From assembly GCA_964431685.1 (NCBI GenBank), contig CAYSLA010000003.1, forward strand, positions 1 to 56,299: 56,299 bases of DNA, written 5' to 3'. Shown here in pieces: positions 2,565 to 44,196 of this stretch (positions are counted from its first letter, which is position 1; each line of letters opens with the position of its first letter). This DNA comes from an uncultured bacterium. Lineage in GTDB: Bacteria; Armatimonadota; UBA5829. A model generated the notes under the pieces. That model was given only the letters and a program-made list of their open reading frames with translations, searched no databases and was not told the DNA's origin. Position numbers and translations under genes: made by a program.

Positions 2565-3113
2565 CTATCTGCTCTTGATCGGACCGAGGGATATTTCAAA
2601 GTCGGATGGTGTGGTGGTCTCCGGCGCGATGATCACCGGTCTGGCGCCACGGTCAGGGGGTATGATGTCTTTGGTTCCCAGAGGAAACGAGCGGAGATTG
2701 CGCTGTGCCCACTGGGCGGCCTCTTTGCTCACAGGACTCTTGAGGTTGTAGCTGCGATACTGAATCATATCGCCTATGTGGGCGATTATGTTTACCAGAG
2801 TCACACCGGCGGACCAGAAGTCCCCGATACACACATAGTCACCGATGTTCGGATGCCAGATGGGTGTGTGCATAACGCATCGTGGGGATTGTTTGGGATA
2901 TCCCAGAGGAAGCGTGATGTCGACCACGTGTTTGGTGACACCGTGGGGCCGCTGCTGCGAAGCGTCCCACGCAATGCCACTCAGGTTATACGTGACCAGA
3001 TACCGGCCGGGCGGATCGCCCGACACTGCTTGAACCGATACAATGTCGCTGTGCGAAAACTCCGAGAGCACCTGTCTATAATCGTTGGCGAGTCGCCTTG
3101 CGCGGATACTCAT
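2565..3113 (-). CDS. Ubiquitin-conjugating enzyme (canonical UBC/E2 fold) homologue
   Basis: 182 aa. The core reads LPLGYPKQSPRCVMHTPIWHPNIGDYVCIGDFWSAGVTL, which matches the eukaryotic E2 core pattern YP..PP.v.F.T.i.HPNI...G.iCl..L...WSpa. The HPN codons are at 2847-2855 and the candidate catalytic Cys95 codon is at 2829-2831. The N-terminal RRLANDYRQVL resembles E2 helix 1. The ATG overlaps the JAMM stop (ATGA at 3110-3113). Confidence 0.85.
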   Translation of the reverse strand: MSIRARRLANDYRQVLSEFSHSDIVSVQAVSGDPPGRYLVTYNLSGIAWDASQQRPHGVTKHVVDITLPLGYPKQSPRCVMHTPIWHPNIGDYVCIGDFWSAGVTLVNIIAHIGDMIQYRSYNLKSPVSKEAAQWAQRNLRSFPLGTKDIIPPDRGARPVIIAPETTTPSDFEISLGPIKSR

Positions 3114-4567
3114 TCTTCTTCAGTCCCCGGTTTCTCCAGGCGCCTTGTTTCTTCGGGAGAGATTGCGCCCAGCATGTCCTTGGGCCGAGGATCACGCCGC
3201 GTATTTGCAAAGGCTGCAAGGTCCAATTGCTCGCTGCGTGTCATCTCGCCAAACACCCTCTTGAGGGTTGACTCCGGGGCGTCAAGAAGAGACGTGTGGA
3301 AGCGTTTCTTCTCGCCCTGAAGCCACCTCAGAGCAGCTCGGTACTCCTCCGGGGCTCTGGATTCGGCAGGGCCCTTCGAACTCGCTCGAACCATATTGGA
3401 CGCCAGTCGGGCGCGTTCGACTCTTTCCGGCCAAGTTCGCGCATGGCGCCAGTAGACTTCGGCAAGCCTTGCGGCGCGCGCAGACGCGGCCGAGGCCTGT
3501 GCCTGTGAAGCATCCTTGTCTACACCGATCCTCTCGCCTACTGAGAGCGGCCGATTGTCGCTGCGGTTGGCGGCGATGGAGGCTGAGATGATAAGGTTCG
3601 CTCCGTCAAGCTCGGGGCTGTCGAGTTCTCGCGCCCGCAACGCCGCCCGCACCTTCACAAGCCTTTCAAGTTCCCGAAGTGCGGCACTGTTGGTCCGATC
3701 TGCAGCCACAGCACGCCTTAACCAATCCTCCGCGTCCGAGTAGTCCGAAATCCTGATCAAGCGCAGAGCCACCTTAGTTGGGTCGGGAGGCGGGTCAGGA
3801 CGCATCGCAATTGAAAGGATTAATCCTGCGAGCACGAGCGTGGCAATTGCCCAGGGCAACCATCCGCGAATCCCGAGCTTTCGGGTCCGGCGCGTGCCAG
3901 CTATTGAGGATGAGGCAGCATTAGCGGCCGCGGTGTCGCGCCTGCGATATTCGCTAAGCCTCCTGGCAGTGTCTCTGGCCTTTCTGGACGATCGCTTCTC
4001 CTCGAAAATGTAGAATCCTCGGGTTCTTACCAGGGATCCGTCTTTCCATCTGAAGCAGCCCCAGTTCTCGTGCATTGGGTCCAGAACGAGCGCGACCTGC
4101 CACGGGTCCCGAAAGAACCCGTTGTGGATAAAGTCGTCCTCCCTGCTCATGAAGACCCCAAGGCCAGGGTGCGTATGATACCACCCAACTATCTGCCGAT
4201 TCTCCCCGAGGCGAGCGAGCTCCTTGCTGATCTCCTTCCAGGATTCGTGCGTGAATGTGAAGGAGATGTCCGTCTTCTGGTCACTGGGCGCTTCGATGAT
4301 GCCGTCGATCTCGATGTATGATTCCGTCTGTGTGCGGTAGAAGCCGCCCACCAGCACTCCTCCAGTCTCTACGCCGGAGTCTGCCGTGGCTTGAGCGGAA
4401 ATCCCCGCTATCACACTCTCGCGGATGAAGACCGGGATGCTGTCTGAGGCGGGATCGTCGTACGCGAAGCAGACAAGAGACCTGTCCAGCAACGGGCTGG
4501 GTTTTGACTCTATGCCTTTACGCTTTGACTCACCAAGACTGATTTCGAAATCACCGTCAGAGTTCAA
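3110..4567 (-). CDS. JAMM/MPN+ metalloisopeptidase (deubiquitinase-like) with one TM helix and a ~230-aa C-terminal helical domain
   Basis: 485 aa. It has the conserved Glu (VETGGVLVG) and the complete JAMM motif WYHTHPGLGVFMSREDD (H-x-H-x7-S-x2-D). A hydrophobic helix WLPWAIATLVLAGLILSIAM (about residues 236-255) is preceded by RRTRKLGIR. The C-terminal region is Arg/Ala-rich and helical. The start is a TTG at 4567 with a GGGAG Shine-Dalgarno 7 nt upstream. Confidence 0.85.
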   Translation of the reverse strand: MNSDGDFEISLGESKRKGIESKPSPLLDRSLVCFAYDDPASDSIPVFIRESVIAGISAQATADSGVETGGVLVGGFYRTQTESYIEIDGIIEAPSDQKTDISFTFTHESWKEISKELARLGENRQIVGWYHTHPGLGVFMSREDDFIHNGFFRDPWQVALVLDPMHENWGCFRWKDGSLVRTRGFYIFEEKRSSRKARDTARRLSEYRRRDTAAANAASSSIAGTRRTRKLGIRGWLPWAIATLVLAGLILSIAMRPDPPPDPTKVALRLIRISDYSDAEDWLRRAVAADRTNSAALRELERLVKVRAALRARELDSPELDGANLIISASIAANRSDNRPLSVGERIGVDKDASQAQASAASARAARLAEVYWRHARTWPERVERARLASNMVRASSKGPAESRAPEEYRAALRWLQGEKKRFHTSLLDAPESTLKRVFGEMTRSEQLDLAAFANTRRDPRPKDMLGAISPEETRRLEKPGTEEE

Positions 4568-4585
4568 GGATCATCTCCCGCTGAA

Positions 4586-4618
4586 CACCTCCCCCCTCCG
4601 TTCCGGAGGGGGGAGGTG
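4586..4618. repeat. Perfect 15-bp-stem C/G-rich palindrome CACCTCCCCCCTCCG-ttc-CGGAGGGGGGAGGTG
   Basis: Read directly. It lies in the intra-operon spacer about 20 nt upstream of the JAMM start. A related copy is at 13890-13929. One arm contains the SD-like GGAGGTG and the other contains its complement CACCTCC. Confidence 0.85.
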
Positions 4619-4705
4619 CTGATACGCTGCACTTCGTAATGGACGTGAAGGGGCGAGTTCTCAAATGCCGCCCCATCGTGGGCTCGGCCAGGCAAGATGT
4701 CTGTA

Positions 4706-4737
4706 CCACAATGCCCGACATGAGTGTCGGGCCTACC
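4706..4737 (-). repeat. REP element (GTAGG + CCCGACA..TGTCGGG palindrome), copy 1 in the Ub-operon spacer
   Basis: The plus strand reads ccacaatgcccgacatgagtgtcgggcctacc. On the minus strand it starts with GGTAGG followed by a hairpin. It is 31/32 identical to the copy at 4778-4809 and belongs to the same family as 44139-44196. Confidence 0.85.
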
Positions 4738-4777
4738 TTCTGGGGGAGGTTGGACGCCGCCCCCCGTGTCTCGTGCG

Positions 4778-4809
4778 CCACAATGCCCGACACGAGTGTC
4801 GGGCCTACC
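4778..4809 (-). repeat. REP element, copy 2 (direct orientation relative to copy 1, 72 bp apart)
   Basis: The plus strand reads ccacaatgcccgacacgagtgtcgggcctacc. It has a single mismatch to copy 1, located in the hairpin loop. Confidence 0.85.
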
Positions 4810-4829
4810 ATAGCCTGCCCCATAGTGGT

Positions 4830-5243
4830 CTAGCCCAGGAACTTCCAGAGCAGAAACGCCCCACCACCAATGATAATGCCGTAGAAGATTATGTTGCTGA
4901 GGGATGCCGTGCGCTGCTTCACTCTGCAGTTCCAGCAGAGCAGGTGCTTTTCGTCCGCCACCTCGCCACACGCAAAACATCTCATACTGGGCCTGTCCGC
5001 TTCAACGGACGACTTTGGCTGCGAAAGCTCAACAGTGGCATCCACCCGCGGCGCGATCTTCTCCGCTATACTCTCATCCCACAGCGCAGCGCCATCACAC
5101 CCATACACCGCGCATTTTCCGTTCGCTTTCCAGCACTCCCGATGATGCGATGACCCACATCTGGGACACCTTACACGCTCATCGGATTCGCCGATGTTTC
5201 CCAGGCAGTACGGGCACTTGCCCGGTTCGCTGTTTGTGCTCAT
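4830..5243 (-). CDS. Tail-anchored RING-like (C4HC3 binuclear treble-clef) zinc-finger protein, paralogue B; candidate E3
   Basis: 137 aa. The N-terminal ligand pattern is CPYC-x12-CPRC-x4-H-x2-CW-x5-C-x4-C. A second CxxC-x10-CxxC zinc ribbon follows (CFACGEVADEKHLLCWNC). The C-terminal hydrophobic helix is IIFYGIIIGGGAFLLWKF. The ATG overlaps the stop of paralogue A (ATGA at 5240-5243). Confidence 0.75.
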   Translation of the reverse strand: MSTNSEPGKCPYCLGNIGESDERVRCPRCGSSHHRECWKANGKCAVYGCDGAALWDESIAEKIAPRVDATVELSQPKSSVEADRPSMRCFACGEVADEKHLLCWNCRVKQRTASLSNIIFYGIIIGGGAFLLWKFLG

Positions 5244-5692
5244 TTAATCCACTGCCCTCCAATCGTAATGAGCAGTATCAATCCAACCAAACCCAGGACA
5301 AACAAAGCTCCGAGCATAAGGGCCACCGGATTGTCTGTCCTCTGCGACTCCTCAAAACTGCGCCTGCATTCCTGGCAGCTCAGTTCCCCCTCTGGCAGTT
5401 GCCGTCCGCACACGATGCACGGATTGTACCCTGAGGGGGCGGTTCTGTAAGGCTTGATTACTATCTTCTCTCGCTGCCCGCCAACATCAAGTGTCACCTG
5501 CTCCGTGACATTGATCTCGGTGCGCTTTACGGATCTCGGACAATCCGGAACGCAGCAACCGCCGTTCTCGTCCCAGCACTCGCTGTGCATCACGGATCCG
5601 CAGGCCTGGCACGCGACGGCGGTCTCGCCCTGTGCGATATTGTCGAGGCAATACGGACACGTGCGCTCCGACGGGGAACCCTGTTCTCCCAT
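5240..5692 (-). CDS. Tail-anchored RING-like (C4HC3) zinc-finger protein, paralogue A; candidate E3
   Basis: The pattern is CPYC-x12-CQAC-x4-H-x2-CW-x6-C(C)-x3-C, followed by CIVCGRQLPEGELSCQEC and the C-terminal TM helix LMLGALFVLGLVGLILLITIGG. I prefer the ATG at 5692, which lies 7 nt after the E1 stop, over the TTG at 5713 given in the ORF track. Confidence 0.75.
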   Translation of the reverse strand: MGEQGSPSERTCPYCLDNIAQGETAVACQACGSVMHSECWDENGGCCVPDCPRSVKRTEINVTEQVTLDVGGQREKIVIKPYRTAPSGYNPCIVCGRQLPEGELSCQECRRSFEESQRTDNPVALMLGALFVLGLVGLILLITIGGQWIK

Positions 5693-5699
5693 ATCTGTG

Positions 5700-6896
5700 C
5701 TAGACAATCCCAAATACCTGCTTCAGGTCTCCGCTGATCTCCACACCCACGCTTGTCTCGGAGAATCTGACCGTGACGATCTCCGCCGGGGCAAACCCCA
5801 TATCCTGAAGCGTCAGATGACTGAGACTCGCTTCTCCCACACATTCTGTTACGACATCCGGTAGCCTGAGAGTTCCACACTTTGGGCACGCCGCTTCGTC
5901 CGGCGTCACCGTATCCAATAATCGGTAGAATCCAACCCGCTCTTCACAGGCTCTGCATTCCAGACTGGTAACTATCTCGGACGGAGGCTCGATTCGTCCG
6001 GTCATGCCCATTTCGTGTTGGGCGGCGTCAAGCACATCGGATATGGTGGCAGTTTGGCGATCCAGTTCTGTTTCTATCACGACGTCCAGCGTTTCGTGGC
6101 TTATGCAGTCGTCCCTGCGCACGTAGCCTACGGTGAAGCAGTCGTAGGTCAGTCCGTCGAAGAAGAATCCTCTACCAGCCAGTCCGGGAAGACCGGCGCC
6201 GGGATGCAGCAGTTTGACCGCTTCCTGAACCTCCACGCCGGCGATAACCGCAGCGGTTGCCGGGGTAGTGGGAGTTCGTCCCGCGTGTGCTGCCTGCCTT
6301 TCAATGAAGCCGCACGAGTTCCTTATGGTCATGAACCTGGTGTCCTGCTCACTCAGTGTGCACTCATAGCAGGGGCCATCAGGCGGCACAAATACTCTGG
6401 CTATGCCCTGAAAGGCTTCCGTAGCACCGTCCACCCAGGGCCTGTTCACCTTCCAGCAAGCCCGGTTGACCGCAAAACGCGCGTCGCGGTTGTCCAATCC
6501 GGCAATTACCACGTCTGCCCAGCGGAAGAAGCCAGCGCCCACCTGCGTAGTAACGTCTGCGTTCATCCATCGGGGCTGACAGTCCGGGTTGATAGATTGA
6601 GCTGCCTGGGCCGCAACCTCTGCTTTACACCTGCCCCGGTCGGACTTGCGATACAGAACGCTGCGTGAGAGATTGGAGTCCTCGATCTCGTCGAAGTCCA
6701 CTATCAGCAAGTGACCCACCCCGAGAAGCGCGAGGTTCTTGACTATCTCGTTGCCTAGAGCTCCTGCCCCGACAACCAATACGCGTGCATCGGCCAGTGC
6801 ACGCTGATCCCACCACGGGATCAGGCGAAGCCGCTCATAGCGGTCTTCCGGAGCGTCAAGATGTATGATTTCGCTGGCGGGTTCATCGAAGTTCAT
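5700..6896 (-). CDS. Ubiquitin-activating (E1) enzyme homologue, ThiF/MoeB/Uba adenylation fold with C-terminal Zn-ribbon and putative ubiquitin-fold extension
   Basis: The Rossmann/ATP motif is VLVVGAGALGNEIVKNLALLGVGHLLIVDFDEIEDSNLSRSVLY, followed by GLDNRDARFAVNRAC. CxxC pairs are present (PCYEC, CRAC...CPKC), and a Cys in the crossover region (IRNSCGF) is a candidate catalytic residue. I prefer the ATG at 6896, 5 nt after the Ubl stop, over the track start at 6959, which would overlap the Ubl gene by 58 nt. Confidence 0.85.
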   Translation of the reverse strand: MNFDEPASEIIHLDAPEDRYERLRLIPWWDQRALADARVLVVGAGALGNEIVKNLALLGVGHLLIVDFDEIEDSNLSRSVLYRKSDRGRCKAEVAAQAAQSINPDCQPRWMNADVTTQVGAGFFRWADVVIAGLDNRDARFAVNRACWKVNRPWVDGATEAFQGIARVFVPPDGPCYECTLSEQDTRFMTIRNSCGFIERQAAHAGRTPTTPATAAVIAGVEVQEAVKLLHPGAGLPGLAGRGFFFDGLTYDCFTVGYVRRDDCISHETLDVVIETELDRQTATISDVLDAAQHEMGMTGRIEPPSEIVTSLECRACEERVGFYRLLDTVTPDEAACPKCGTLRLPDVVTECVGEASLSHLTLQDMGFAPAEIVTVRFSETSVGVEISGDLKQVFGIV

Positions 6897-6901
6897 TTCG
6901 C

Positions 6902-7171
6902 CTATCCGGCCGTTATCTCCGGTATCAACCGCAGAACATCTCCTTCGTTTACCTCGCACTGTGCCAGGGTGAGGTTGTCCAGAAGATGCCTGCCGGTCGC
7001 TTTGTGCAGAAACTTATATGTGATTGGAACGCCGGCAGTGTTAACCACGGGCAGATATAACGCCTCTATGAGCTTTTCGACTACTCGCCCCACCGGGACA
7101 TCATCCGGAACAACTGCTTCCTGCTCCTTGCTTCCCGTGGTGTCTATTACTACGATATTGAGCTTTGCCAT
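6902..7171 (-). CDS. Ubiquitin-like beta-grasp protein ending in a free C-terminal glycine (…LRLIPEITAG-stop)
   Basis: 89 aa. The hydrophobic periodicity resembles ubiquitin (LNIVVID…, GDVLRLIP). The ORF terminates immediately after Gly89. A GAGG Shine-Dalgarno lies 7 nt upstream of the ATG. It is the first gene of the operon, directly upstream of the E1. Confidence 0.75.
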   Translation of the reverse strand: MAKLNIVVIDTTGSKEQEAVVPDDVPVGRVVEKLIEALYLPVVNTAGVPITYKFLHKATGRHLLDNLTLAQCEVNEGDVLRLIPEITAG

Positions 7172-44138: not shown

Positions 44139-44196
44139 GGTAGGCCCGACACTCCTGTCGGGCCCCTGCACACCCGACAGGAGTGTCGGGCCTACC
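44139..44196. repeat. REPIN: two inverted REPs (GGTAGGCCCGACACTCCTGTCGGG / reverse complement) separated by 10 nt
   Basis: Perfect 24-bp arms read directly. Each arm is itself a hairpin preceded by GTAG. It lies in the intergenic region between the export gene and mfd. Confidence 0.9.

Follow-up and report, generated by a model that had tools for sequence, protein, structure and literature searches.

Why do two enzymes of one bacterial ubiquitin-like protein (Ubl) operon, the conjugating enzyme (E2) and the JAMM metalloprotease, carry the same seven residues at opposite ends of their chains? The question is raised by a six-gene operon on the minus strand of contig CAYSLA010000003.1 (assembly GCA_964431685.1, an uncultured member of the Armatimonadota), of which a stretch of 56,299 nucleotides was analyzed and is referred to here as the window. 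The genes run in the order Ubl, activating enzyme (E1), RING, RING, JAMM and E2. The E2 ends in ...TTPSDFEISLGPIKSR directly before its stop codon, the JAMM protein opens from a TTG start codon with MNSDGDFEISLGESKRKG, and the heptapeptide DFEISLG is common to both:

2568-2603, minus strand: E2 C-terminal motif DFEISLG-PIKSR, with a basic extension up to the stop codon (core DFEISLG, aa 171-177, at 2583-2603)
4514-4552, minus strand: JAMM N-terminal motif DFEISLG-ESKRKG (core DFEISLG, aa 6-12, at 4532-4552)

An initial annotation had pointed out this shared heptapeptide and had argued that it is no DNA repeat, and both statements were borne out. The coding DNA reads GACTTTGAAATATCCCTCGGT in the E2 and GATTTCGAAATCAGTCTTGGT in the JAMM, with 14 of 21 bases identical and the serine encoded by TCC in one and AGT in the other, so that the conservation is at the level of the peptide. 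The number of identical 7-mers expected by chance between the two proteins is 2.4e-4 (0.00024). A coincidence, or a recent patch of gene conversion devoid of function, could draw on the short length of the match and on nothing else; in addition to the low expectation and the codon differences, the motif occupies the same termini in dozens of orthologues, and the conservation data refute this explanation, which can be practically dismissed.

The gene order Ubl-E1-RING-RING-JAMM-E2 is common to 43 related loci from genomes and metagenomes, mostly of Armatimonadota. Among 98 E2 homologues, all 92 of the close full-length ones end in the same element. An alignment of 33 sequences shows no variation at E2 residues I174, L176 and G177 and at least 90% conservation at P178 and R180, and the ∼25 residues ahead of the motif are gapped and unconserved. 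The sequence logo of 93 unique E2 tails reads x-D-D-[LVI]-[DE]-I-[SDE]-L-G-P-[VIA]-R-[ED]-R, and that of 35 unique JAMM N-termini, where the motif begins 1-7 residues past the initiator Met, reads D-D-[FILV]-[QED]-I-E-L-G-x-[SA]-V-R-R-H. The core is flanked by acidic residues, with D at position -7 relative to the Gly in 60 of the 93 E2 tails, D at -6 in 59, and D or E at -4 in 70; the same flank is found in the JAMMs. All 18 loci that have both an E2 and a JAMM gene carry both copies. A strict pattern of the motif matched 23 times in 9,288 residues of E2 and 15 times in 16,102 residues of JAMM, as compared to 12 times in 417,467 residues of other open reading frames (ORFs), and gave zero matches in the RING or Ubl proteins of these loci. 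Far from being absent or displaced in homologous operons, which the initial annotation had named as the outcome that would count against it, the motif is positionally conserved. These data support a functional role for the heptapeptide, which is a short linear motif conserved in sequence and in position. Co-variation of the E2 and JAMM copies within operons was not significant (p = 0.11, or 0.43 without the window), indicating that the perfect identity seen in the window is a peculiarity of its lineage. In another locus (L012), six of the seven residues are identical between the two copies.

Single-chain AlphaFold2 models, which report on contacts in cis only, were built for the E2 (from the 33-sequence alignment) and for JAMM residues 1-235 (from 53 sequences). 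The E2 tail has a predicted local distance difference test score (pLDDT) of 39-51 and no assigned secondary structure, and in it the motif follows a leash:

2604-2669, minus strand: E2 linker, aa 149-170, rich in Pro, Thr and Ala and variable (no conserved columns, and length varies in the orthologue alignment)

JAMM residues 1-10 likewise have a pLDDT of 58 and no secondary structure, with the fold beginning at aa 21 at a pLDDT of 97. Both copies thus sit in low-confidence segments of the models and are probably disordered.

Is the motif confined to these two enzymes? A full-length JAMM query returned 20 matches dominated by low-complexity C-terminal words, and residues 1-235 were used instead. 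This search reached a much wider family, whose alignment consensus still opens M-x5-D-x-x-I-x-L. Eight operons of the wider family were examined (L044-L046 and L048-L052). They are built around the same 89-residue Ubl, 53-58% identical to that of the window, and add trypsin-like and M48 membrane proteases, FHA proteins, RDD proteins, LysM-JAMMs and up to three RINGs. In these distant operons, copies of the motif are found at the N-terminus of the E1 (EDQILDIDLEEGRY... and MHGEPDIDIELEP...), at the N-termini of two or three JAMMs per operon, at the C-terminus of the E2, in one to three copies (...DDLEIELK, ...EEIEIELL and ...DDLGIELG), at the N-termini of FHA proteins, and in the tails of the trypsin-like and M48 proteases (...DVDITLH, ...DVDIELR and ...DSLEIELK). 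The protease copies are placed in the cytosol because each tail follows a transmembrane helix and a basic stretch. RDD proteins and small proteins of no known family gave weaker visual matches.

The protein termini of six distant operons were scored with a profile whose training set consisted solely of E2 tails from the window's family. Above 6.8 bits, the best score reached by a flanking protein, lie 22 of 53 system proteins and 0 of 32 flanking proteins (Mann-Whitney p = 0.009), and the strict pattern matched 18 of 53 system proteins and 2 of 32 flanking ones (Fisher p = 0.0035). Neither the Ubl (0 of 5 scored) nor the RING and zinc-ribbon proteins (0 of 9) carry the motif in these six operons. 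The RDD protein and two of the three small unknown proteins fell below the flanking maximum, and unk128 of L049 is the only protein lacking a Pfam assignment that passed the scoring threshold. In the reverse direction, every 7-mer of the six operon proteins was ranked with a profile built from the distant operons, with the window excluded; the E2 peptide came first (12.8 bits) and the JAMM peptide second (8.7 bits), as compared to 7.3 bits for the 99.9th percentile of background. No other terminal match occurs in the whole window, of which the E2 copy is the top-scoring 7-mer. The motif is therefore conserved, terminal and system-wide, being present on most of the soluble components in this family of systems, and it is absent from the Ubl and the RINGs.

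The E1 N-terminus of the window (ASEIIHLDAPEDRY, 6837-6878) was considered as a third copy and rejected, being degenerate and scoring a non-significant 1.3 bits. At the other end of the E1 (5700-5760), the last strand, VGVEISGD (YFELSGD or HFELSGD in distant E1s), loosely resembles the F-E-I-S of the core and scores 0.0 bits, which is not significant. The E1 and the Ubl tail also have the 5-mer LRLIP in common (RY-E-R-LRLIP-WWDQ, 6816-6830, and DV-LRLIP-EITAG, 6920-6934), and both segments are conserved in relatives; the sharing may be coincidence, since 6% of shuffled E2/JAMM pairs shared a 5-mer.

Several features of the distant loci were noted alongside the motif. Four of them (L045, L046, L048 and L049) are larger operons with two E2 paralogues, only one of which is tagged, two or three JAMMs, up to three RINGs fused to FGE-sulfatase, beta-propeller, RDD or DUF2628 modules, a trypsin-like and an M48 membrane protease, and VWA and FHA proteins. 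With their periplasmic sensor or effector domains, these operons look like a membrane-spanning signalling or quality-control machine. A second element, [RK]-[IL]-V-I-x-x-x-D-L, opens FHA and other proteins (PIVINEEDLDE, RIVIRSEDLD and RLVITADDLHD). Its carriers are the product of a gene between E2 and Ubl in L009, L038, L039 and L041, the RDD protein and unk109 of L048, and FHA2 of L049. Fusions of an E2 to a transmembrane segment and an FHA domain carry N-D-F-E-I-T-A-E-E-L, and the second element may be a longer variant of the same motif. The FHA genes are genuine neighbours of these systems. A metagenomic protein of 307 aa (P0094), with two FHA domains, the C-terminal half of an E2 and the tail ...DLDISLGPVRERHG, was left unused as a probable assembly chimera, its junction falling at the catalytic Cys.

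What, then, might the motif do? The reading we favour, at about even confidence, is that DFEISLG is a terminal docking motif, carried on flexible termini, that tethers the enzymes of the pathway to one common hub, most likely the Ubl. This reading is suggested by the pattern of a conserved island on a flexible terminus, by alternating hydrophobic residues that would give a beta-strand one hydrophobic face, by the acidic flank, by the number of carriers, all with their copies in the cytosol, and by the absence of the motif from two protein classes; that it binds, that it binds in trans and that the Ubl is the hub are points that we infer. In its general form the motif would comprise one or two acidic residues followed by h-x-I-x-L (h, hydrophobic), with a Gly and a basic stretch added in the window's lineage, and from the cytosolic side of the membrane it would bind as an added beta-strand to the hub. 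The E2, on its ∼22-residue leash, and the membrane-anchored JAMM would both be held at the same partner, and in related systems the E1, further JAMMs, membrane proteases and FHA proteins would be tethered likewise. The most probable site is the non-catalytic face of the Ubl beta-grasp. The E2, which conjugates, and the JAMM, which deconjugates, would then either be rivals for a given Ubl or Ubl-conjugate or pass it from one to the other, at the membrane in which the two RINGs reside. The Gly and basic suffix may form a turn and a second strand, for which statistical support is weak.

The Ubl is favoured as the hub because it is the common partner of the E1, E2 and JAMMs, because it is present in seven of the eight variant loci, and because it is the most conserved protein. 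Among the seven is L050, which consists only of the Ubl and a motif-bearing JAMM-LysM protein. Identity to the window is 53-58% for the Ubl as compared to 33-48% for the E1, E2 and JAMM, and the surface-forming residues of the Ubl are near-invariant across 22 operons, as one would predict for a protein that engages many others. No solved structure of this Ubl was found.

Several observations limit this assignment. One distant locus (L044) has a motif-bearing E2, JAMM and FHA protein and no Ubl or E1 within 7 kb. The JAMM, and not the Ubl, is the sole component present in every locus, an observation biased by the use of E2 or JAMM queries to find the loci. That the two copies do not co-vary within operons says nothing against a shared, nearly invariant receptor and nothing positive in its favour. 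The core fits neither the consensus of the SUMO-interacting motif (SIM; h-h-x-h or h-x-h-h) nor that of the LC3-interacting region (LIR; [WFY]-x-x-[LIV]), since F-E-I-S-L has a Ser at +3 from the Phe and no two adjacent hydrophobic residues; the motif can therefore act like a SIM or LIR but belongs to neither sequence class. The Ubl is acidic (12 acidic and 8 basic residues), as is the motif flank, and a local basic patch would be needed for binding. Finally, the core is low in information, with internal 7-mers of unrelated window proteins reaching 11 bits on a broad profile.

A hub other than the Ubl is the alternative that bears most directly on these points. Of all the operon proteins, only the RINGs and the Ubl were never found with the motif, so either could be the receptor, and the candidates would be the cytosolic modules of the RING/zinc-ribbon proteins, the C-terminal beta-rich domain of the E1, or a non-catalytic surface of the JAMM/MPN domain acting as a scaffold. 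Eukaryotic E2 tails are known to dock on ligases (E3s), the acidic tail of Cdc34 on cullin and the tail of Ube2S on the APC/C. The L044 locus, with its three tagged proteins, also encodes a RING-like membrane protein, and besides the presence of a JAMM everywhere, the large relatives have two or three JAMM paralogues. However, L046 and L050 keep the motif with no RING in the locus, L050 and L044 have no E1, AlphaFold2 does not place the N-terminal copy of the JAMM on the JAMM domain, and the ubiquity of the JAMM is subject to the search bias given above. Taken together, a hub of this kind appears unlikely. A Rosetta-stone profile search for a domain replacing the E2 tail, run over 1.84 billion representative sequences, gave 1870 hits and nothing that identifies a receptor; the E2 fusions recovered were to Cys-rich repeats, transmembrane-FHA modules and coiled coils, and the motif was present in 22 of the 148 best representatives.

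The initial annotation had instead proposed that the heptapeptide mimics the C-terminal tail of the Ubl, for which the relevant feature is:

6905-6922, minus strand: PEITAG at the Ubl C-terminus (...LRLIPEITAG-stop), with the Gly directly before the stop codon

On such a reading the peptide would fill the Ubl-tail groove of the JAMM, and perhaps of the E1 and E2, as a pseudo-substrate for auto-inhibition or competitive regulation. In an alignment on the Gly, [DE]-I-[ST]-x-G is indeed common to the Ubl tail and the motif, the D-F-E-I-T-A-E of some distant E2-FHA fusions has E-I-T-A in common with PEITAG, the three enzymes that bind a Ubl tail (E1, E2 and JAMM) all carry copies in relatives, and the Ile at -3 of the motif stands at the position of Leu73, a key recognition residue, in ubiquitin. 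When scored, however, the resemblance proved to be no greater than chance. Aligned on the Gly, the Ubl tail scores -6.1 bits on the motif profile, as compared to at least 10.6 bits for true instances, and 5.8% of Gly-ending background 8-mers do as well; on the independent distant-operon profile it scores -1.6 bits, a value equalled or exceeded by 3.6% of background 7-mers. Where the motif has its defining D-D-h (-7 to -5) and Leu (-1), the Ubl has L-I-P and Ala. The suggested check on co-variation of E-I-[ST]-x-G tails finds nothing in the Ubl with which the other copies could co-vary. The Ubl tail EITAG is invariant in the 12 close-family loci that have a Ubl gene (11 of the 18 paired loci), reads E-I-[TVI]-A-G in 22 of 22 related-operon Ubls and exactly EITAG in 17 of these, and the E2 and JAMM copies vary around it. 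Outside the window's E2 family the Gly is found in only 10 of 38 motif instances, missing from about three quarters of them, and C-terminal copies in relatives end in ...DITLH, ...DIELR, ...IELK or ...IELL. FHA proteins and the cytosolic tails of periplasmic proteases carry the motif and have no groove for a Ubl tail. As for auto-inhibition in cis, the AlphaFold2 monomers dock neither copy on its own enzyme and leave the JAMM N-terminus out of its own groove; with both segments modelled as low-confidence coil, the models give no evidence for intramolecular pseudo-substrate binding. On this balance, tail mimicry is quite unlikely.

The tail in the window's Ubl ends exactly at the Gly, and many relatives (L001, L004-L007, L022, L023, L027-L029 and L052) have an extension of 2-6 residues after EITAG (GK, AG, GS, SS, GCFCVC, ESFRVC, GNEGVG or TNLG). 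These predicted propeptides imply JAMM-dependent maturation in those relatives.

Processing was a further suggestion of the initial annotation. The JAMM would cut after ...ISLG, exposing a C-terminal Gly on the E2 that the E1 could adenylate for conjugation, in the manner of Cap2 in the cyclic oligonucleotide-based antiphage signalling system (CBASS). In its favour are the invariant Gly of the window's E2 family, one distant E2 that ends exactly ...DDLGIELG-stop, and the Ubl propeptides themselves, which the JAMM presumably trims off after the Gly. Against it, a Pro directly follows the motif Gly in 89 of the 93 unique E2 tails, and Pro is unfavourable as a P1' residue for deubiquitinase cleavage. 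A bulky Leu stands at -1 where Ubl tails have Gly or Ala, N-terminal copies, if cut, would release only a ∼12-residue peptide, the last residue of C-terminal copies in relatives is mostly H, K, R, L or N and not Gly, and the conserved tail of most orthologues has Arg in place of Lys. Cleavage of this kind is highly improbable, and we regard as equally improbable its extension to a scheme in which all tagged termini are surrogate Ubl tails, with the JAMM trimming the E2 and the other C-terminally tagged proteins, the E1 adenylating their Gly, and enzymes or membrane proteases being ligated to targets. If true, such surrogate tails would amount to CBASS-like conjugation of non-Ubl proteins within a full E1-E2-RING cascade. 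The precedent is real, in that Cap2 is reported to be an E1-like enzyme that activates the C-terminus of a non-Ubl protein, conjugating a cGAS-like enzyme (PMC10097602).

The Gly and basic suffix raise one more possibility, namely that the acidic strand, the Gly turn and a basic strand form an amphipathic beta-hairpin used for self-association or for membrane-proximal clustering of tagged proteins, in place of binding to a single receptor. This suffix is specific to the window's lineage and is also present in the E2 and JAMM of L051, an unrelated operon. A Gly followed by a basic stretch thus recurs in both enzymes, as LGPxRxR and LGxSVRRH in the family and independently as LGPLKKR and LGEIKKRES in L051. 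Downstream of the core, Gly-bearing instances have fewer acidic residues (p = 0.0095) and, as a trend, more basic residues (p = 0.09), and alternating hydrophobic and charged residues are typical of peptides that form beta-sheets. However, AlphaFold2 gives no secondary structure for either copy, most distant instances have neither the Gly nor the basic half, and the association test was run on non-independent sequences. The hairpin is accordingly very doubtful.

Docking motifs of the favoured kind are well known elsewhere. Non-covalent reader motifs, among them the SIM, the LIR and the UFM1-interacting motif (UFIM), organise eukaryotic Ubl pathways and are generally regarded as eukaryotic elaborations. 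The SIMs of SAE2 and the SENPs, the LIRs of ATG7, ATG3 and ATG4B and the UFIM of UBA5 hold their modifier by its non-catalytic face. Like the members of this class, the motif described here has a conserved hydrophobic core within an unconserved disordered segment, an acidic flank and several carriers in one pathway. SIMs are found on flexible extensions of SAE2 and of the SENPs (PMC12687455), and the likeness to the present case is that a short hydrophobic beta-strand core and an acidic flank occur together on the disordered termini of an activating or conjugating enzyme and of a deconjugating protease, an arrangement compatible with simultaneous catalytic engagement of the modifier. The present motif differs in its core, h-x-I-x-L, in belonging to a bacterial, membrane-associated system and in having proteases and FHA proteins among its carriers, and its binding to the Ubl is a proposal. 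LIRs, or Atg8-interacting motifs, resemble it in that one class of terminal motif serves the E1, E2 and protease of a single Ubl system. ATG4B has an N-terminal and a C-terminal LIR, the latter F388-E-I-L391 (PMC6769624), which by eye only resembles D-F-E-I-S-L, ATG3 reportedly carries a LIR (PMC10214526), and the C-terminal tail of Atg7 is a further instance (PMC5428781). The [WFY]-x-x-[LIV] register is not matched here, and the LIR pockets of Atg8 are built by N-terminal helices, in contrast to the plain 89-residue beta-grasp of the present Ubl.

The UFM1 system offers a further parallel. Human UBA5 carries the motif EWGIELV, with the pattern W-x-I-x-L, and thus the same i, i+2, i+4 hydrophobic spacing as F-x-I-x-L, in a Ubl-anchoring peptide that lies outside the catalytic domain. 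In the UFM1 system the motif is confined to the E1 and has no D-D prefix or Gly-basic suffix, and no homology is implied. The UBA5 element (the UFM1-interacting sequence, UIS, or UFIM) holds UFM1 at a site other than the adenylation domain, a role played for Atg8 by a region of Atg7 (PMC5428781, PMC8304084).

The operon type is itself already known. Bacterial Prok-RING operons were reportedly treated by Burroughs et al. in 2011 (cited in PMC11601603), and they and the operon of Caldiarchaeum subterraneum have the same five component types as the operon here. The Caldiarchaeum operon, with its Ubl, E1, E2, small RING and Rpn11-like JAMM, has been characterised (PMC5654768, PMC6043591, PMC3082918). 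The JAMM of the window is closest in sequence and fold to CsRpn11 and Rpn11, and the Ubls of relatives have a propeptide, as CsUb does; the window's operon differs in having a YukD-like Ubl with a single Gly (EITAG) in place of Gly-Gly, two RINGs and a membrane-anchored JAMM. Bacterial E1, E2 and JAMM chemistry is also found in CBASS Cap2/Cap3, Bil and Bub systems, which work without a RING E3 (PMC10097602, PMC10557695, PMC11601596, PMC11601603), in contrast to the two RINGs here. The PADLOC models for CBASS and Bil gave only generic JAB and E1 hits in the window operon and none for the E2, the Ubl or the RINGs. An assignment as an anti-phage Ubl system of the CBASS type II or Bil kind was rejected, there being no specific PADLOC match and no defence-island or mobile-element context, nor did any relative turn up on a viral contig. 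No description of the terminal motif was found in the literature, including the work on Caldiarchaeum, Bil and Bub and leaving aside Burroughs et al. 2011.

If the motif does bind a hub, motif-mediated wiring of a Ubl pathway would exist in bacteria, and it would provide a cheap experimental handle on an uncharacterised, membrane-associated system, through which the hub, its clients, and catalysis as opposed to recruitment could be addressed. The motif is also a practical way to recognise new components of these operons, and proteins without a Pfam assignment in related loci match it visually.

The genes of the window's operon and their remaining features are:

6902-7171, minus strand: Ubl, 89 aa, YukD-like beta-grasp (Pfam YukD, 6.9e-10)
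5700-6896, minus strand: E1 (Pfam ThiF, 1.7e-55), laid out as a ThiF adenylation domain, a Cys-rich region and a C-terminal beta-rich domain
5240-5713, minus strand: Prok-RING_1 E3-like protein a, 157 aa (Pfam PF14446, 1.2e-8)
5540-5659, minus strand: RING of protein a, which also has a zinc ribbon
5255-5323, minus strand: C-terminal transmembrane helix of protein a, from hydropathy
4830-5243, minus strand: Prok-RING_1 E3-like protein b, 137 aa (Pfam PF14446, 3.3e-12)
5097-5216, minus strand: RING of protein b, which also has a zinc ribbon
4836-4892, minus strand: C-terminal transmembrane helix of protein b, from hydropathy
3110-4567, minus strand: JAMM/JAB metalloprotease, 485 aa, TTG start (Pfam Prok-JAB and JAB)
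4358-4372, minus strand: JAMM catalytic motif around Glu67
4136-4177, minus strand: JAMM catalytic motif H-x-H...S..D
3803-3862, minus strand: JAMM transmembrane helix, aa 236-255 (hydropathy maximum at aa 237)
2565-3113, minus strand: E2, UBC fold, 182 aa (Pfam UQ_con, 3.7e-9)
2829-2855, minus strand: E2 active site HPN...Cys95; the UBC core ends near aa 148

This is a bacterial, membrane-anchored version of a eukaryote-like Ubl/E1/E2/RING/JAMM operon. The Ubl is a beta-grasp protein whose C-terminal Gly is free for the predicted adenylation, and the E1 has eukaryotic UBA7, UBA1 and SAE2 as its best sequence matches in the PDB. Both Prok-RING_1 proteins exceed the Pfam cut-off and are RING-type E3 candidates, ligase activity being a prediction only. 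In the JAMM, the catalytic set is intact, with E67, H131, H133, S141 and D144 invariant among 53 relatives; its AlphaFold2 model (pLDDT 89.5) resembles Rpn11, CsRpn11 and CSN5, with Rpn11 and CsRpn11 as the best Foldseek matches, and its long, helical C-terminal region is probably extracytoplasmic. The E2 model resembles canonical eukaryotic E2 structures, and H87, P88, N89 and C95 are invariant in 33 orthologues.

With respect to gene calls, the mechanically predicted E1 ORF, with a GTG start at 6959, has 58 nt in common with the Ubl gene. The more likely start is the ATG at 6896, six bases past the Ubl stop codon, which would give an N-terminus (MNFDEP...) that agrees with those of relatives. 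The TTG start of the JAMM is preceded by an in-frame TGA two codons upstream and by GGGAGA at 4574-4579, and the start of the E2 overlaps the JAMM stop by 4 nt. The neighbours of the operon are a PAS-GGDEF-EAL gene and pstS/pstC, of signalling or housekeeping type.

The spacer between the stop codon of RING protein b and the start of the JAMM (4568-4829) is 263 nt long, as compared to ∼4-25 nt in most related operons. Within it lie a perfect 15-bp GC hairpin at 4586-4618, ∼20 nt upstream of the JAMM start, and two copies, at 4706-4737 and 4778-4809, of a 32-nt palindrome resembling repetitive extragenic palindromic (REP) elements. The palindrome, with the core GCCCGACA-N4-TGTCGGGC, recurs at 44143-44192, for a total of 8 strand-hits as compared to 0.02 expected. 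The spacer may be a dispersed repeat inserted within the operon, perhaps acting as an attenuator or mRNA-stability element.

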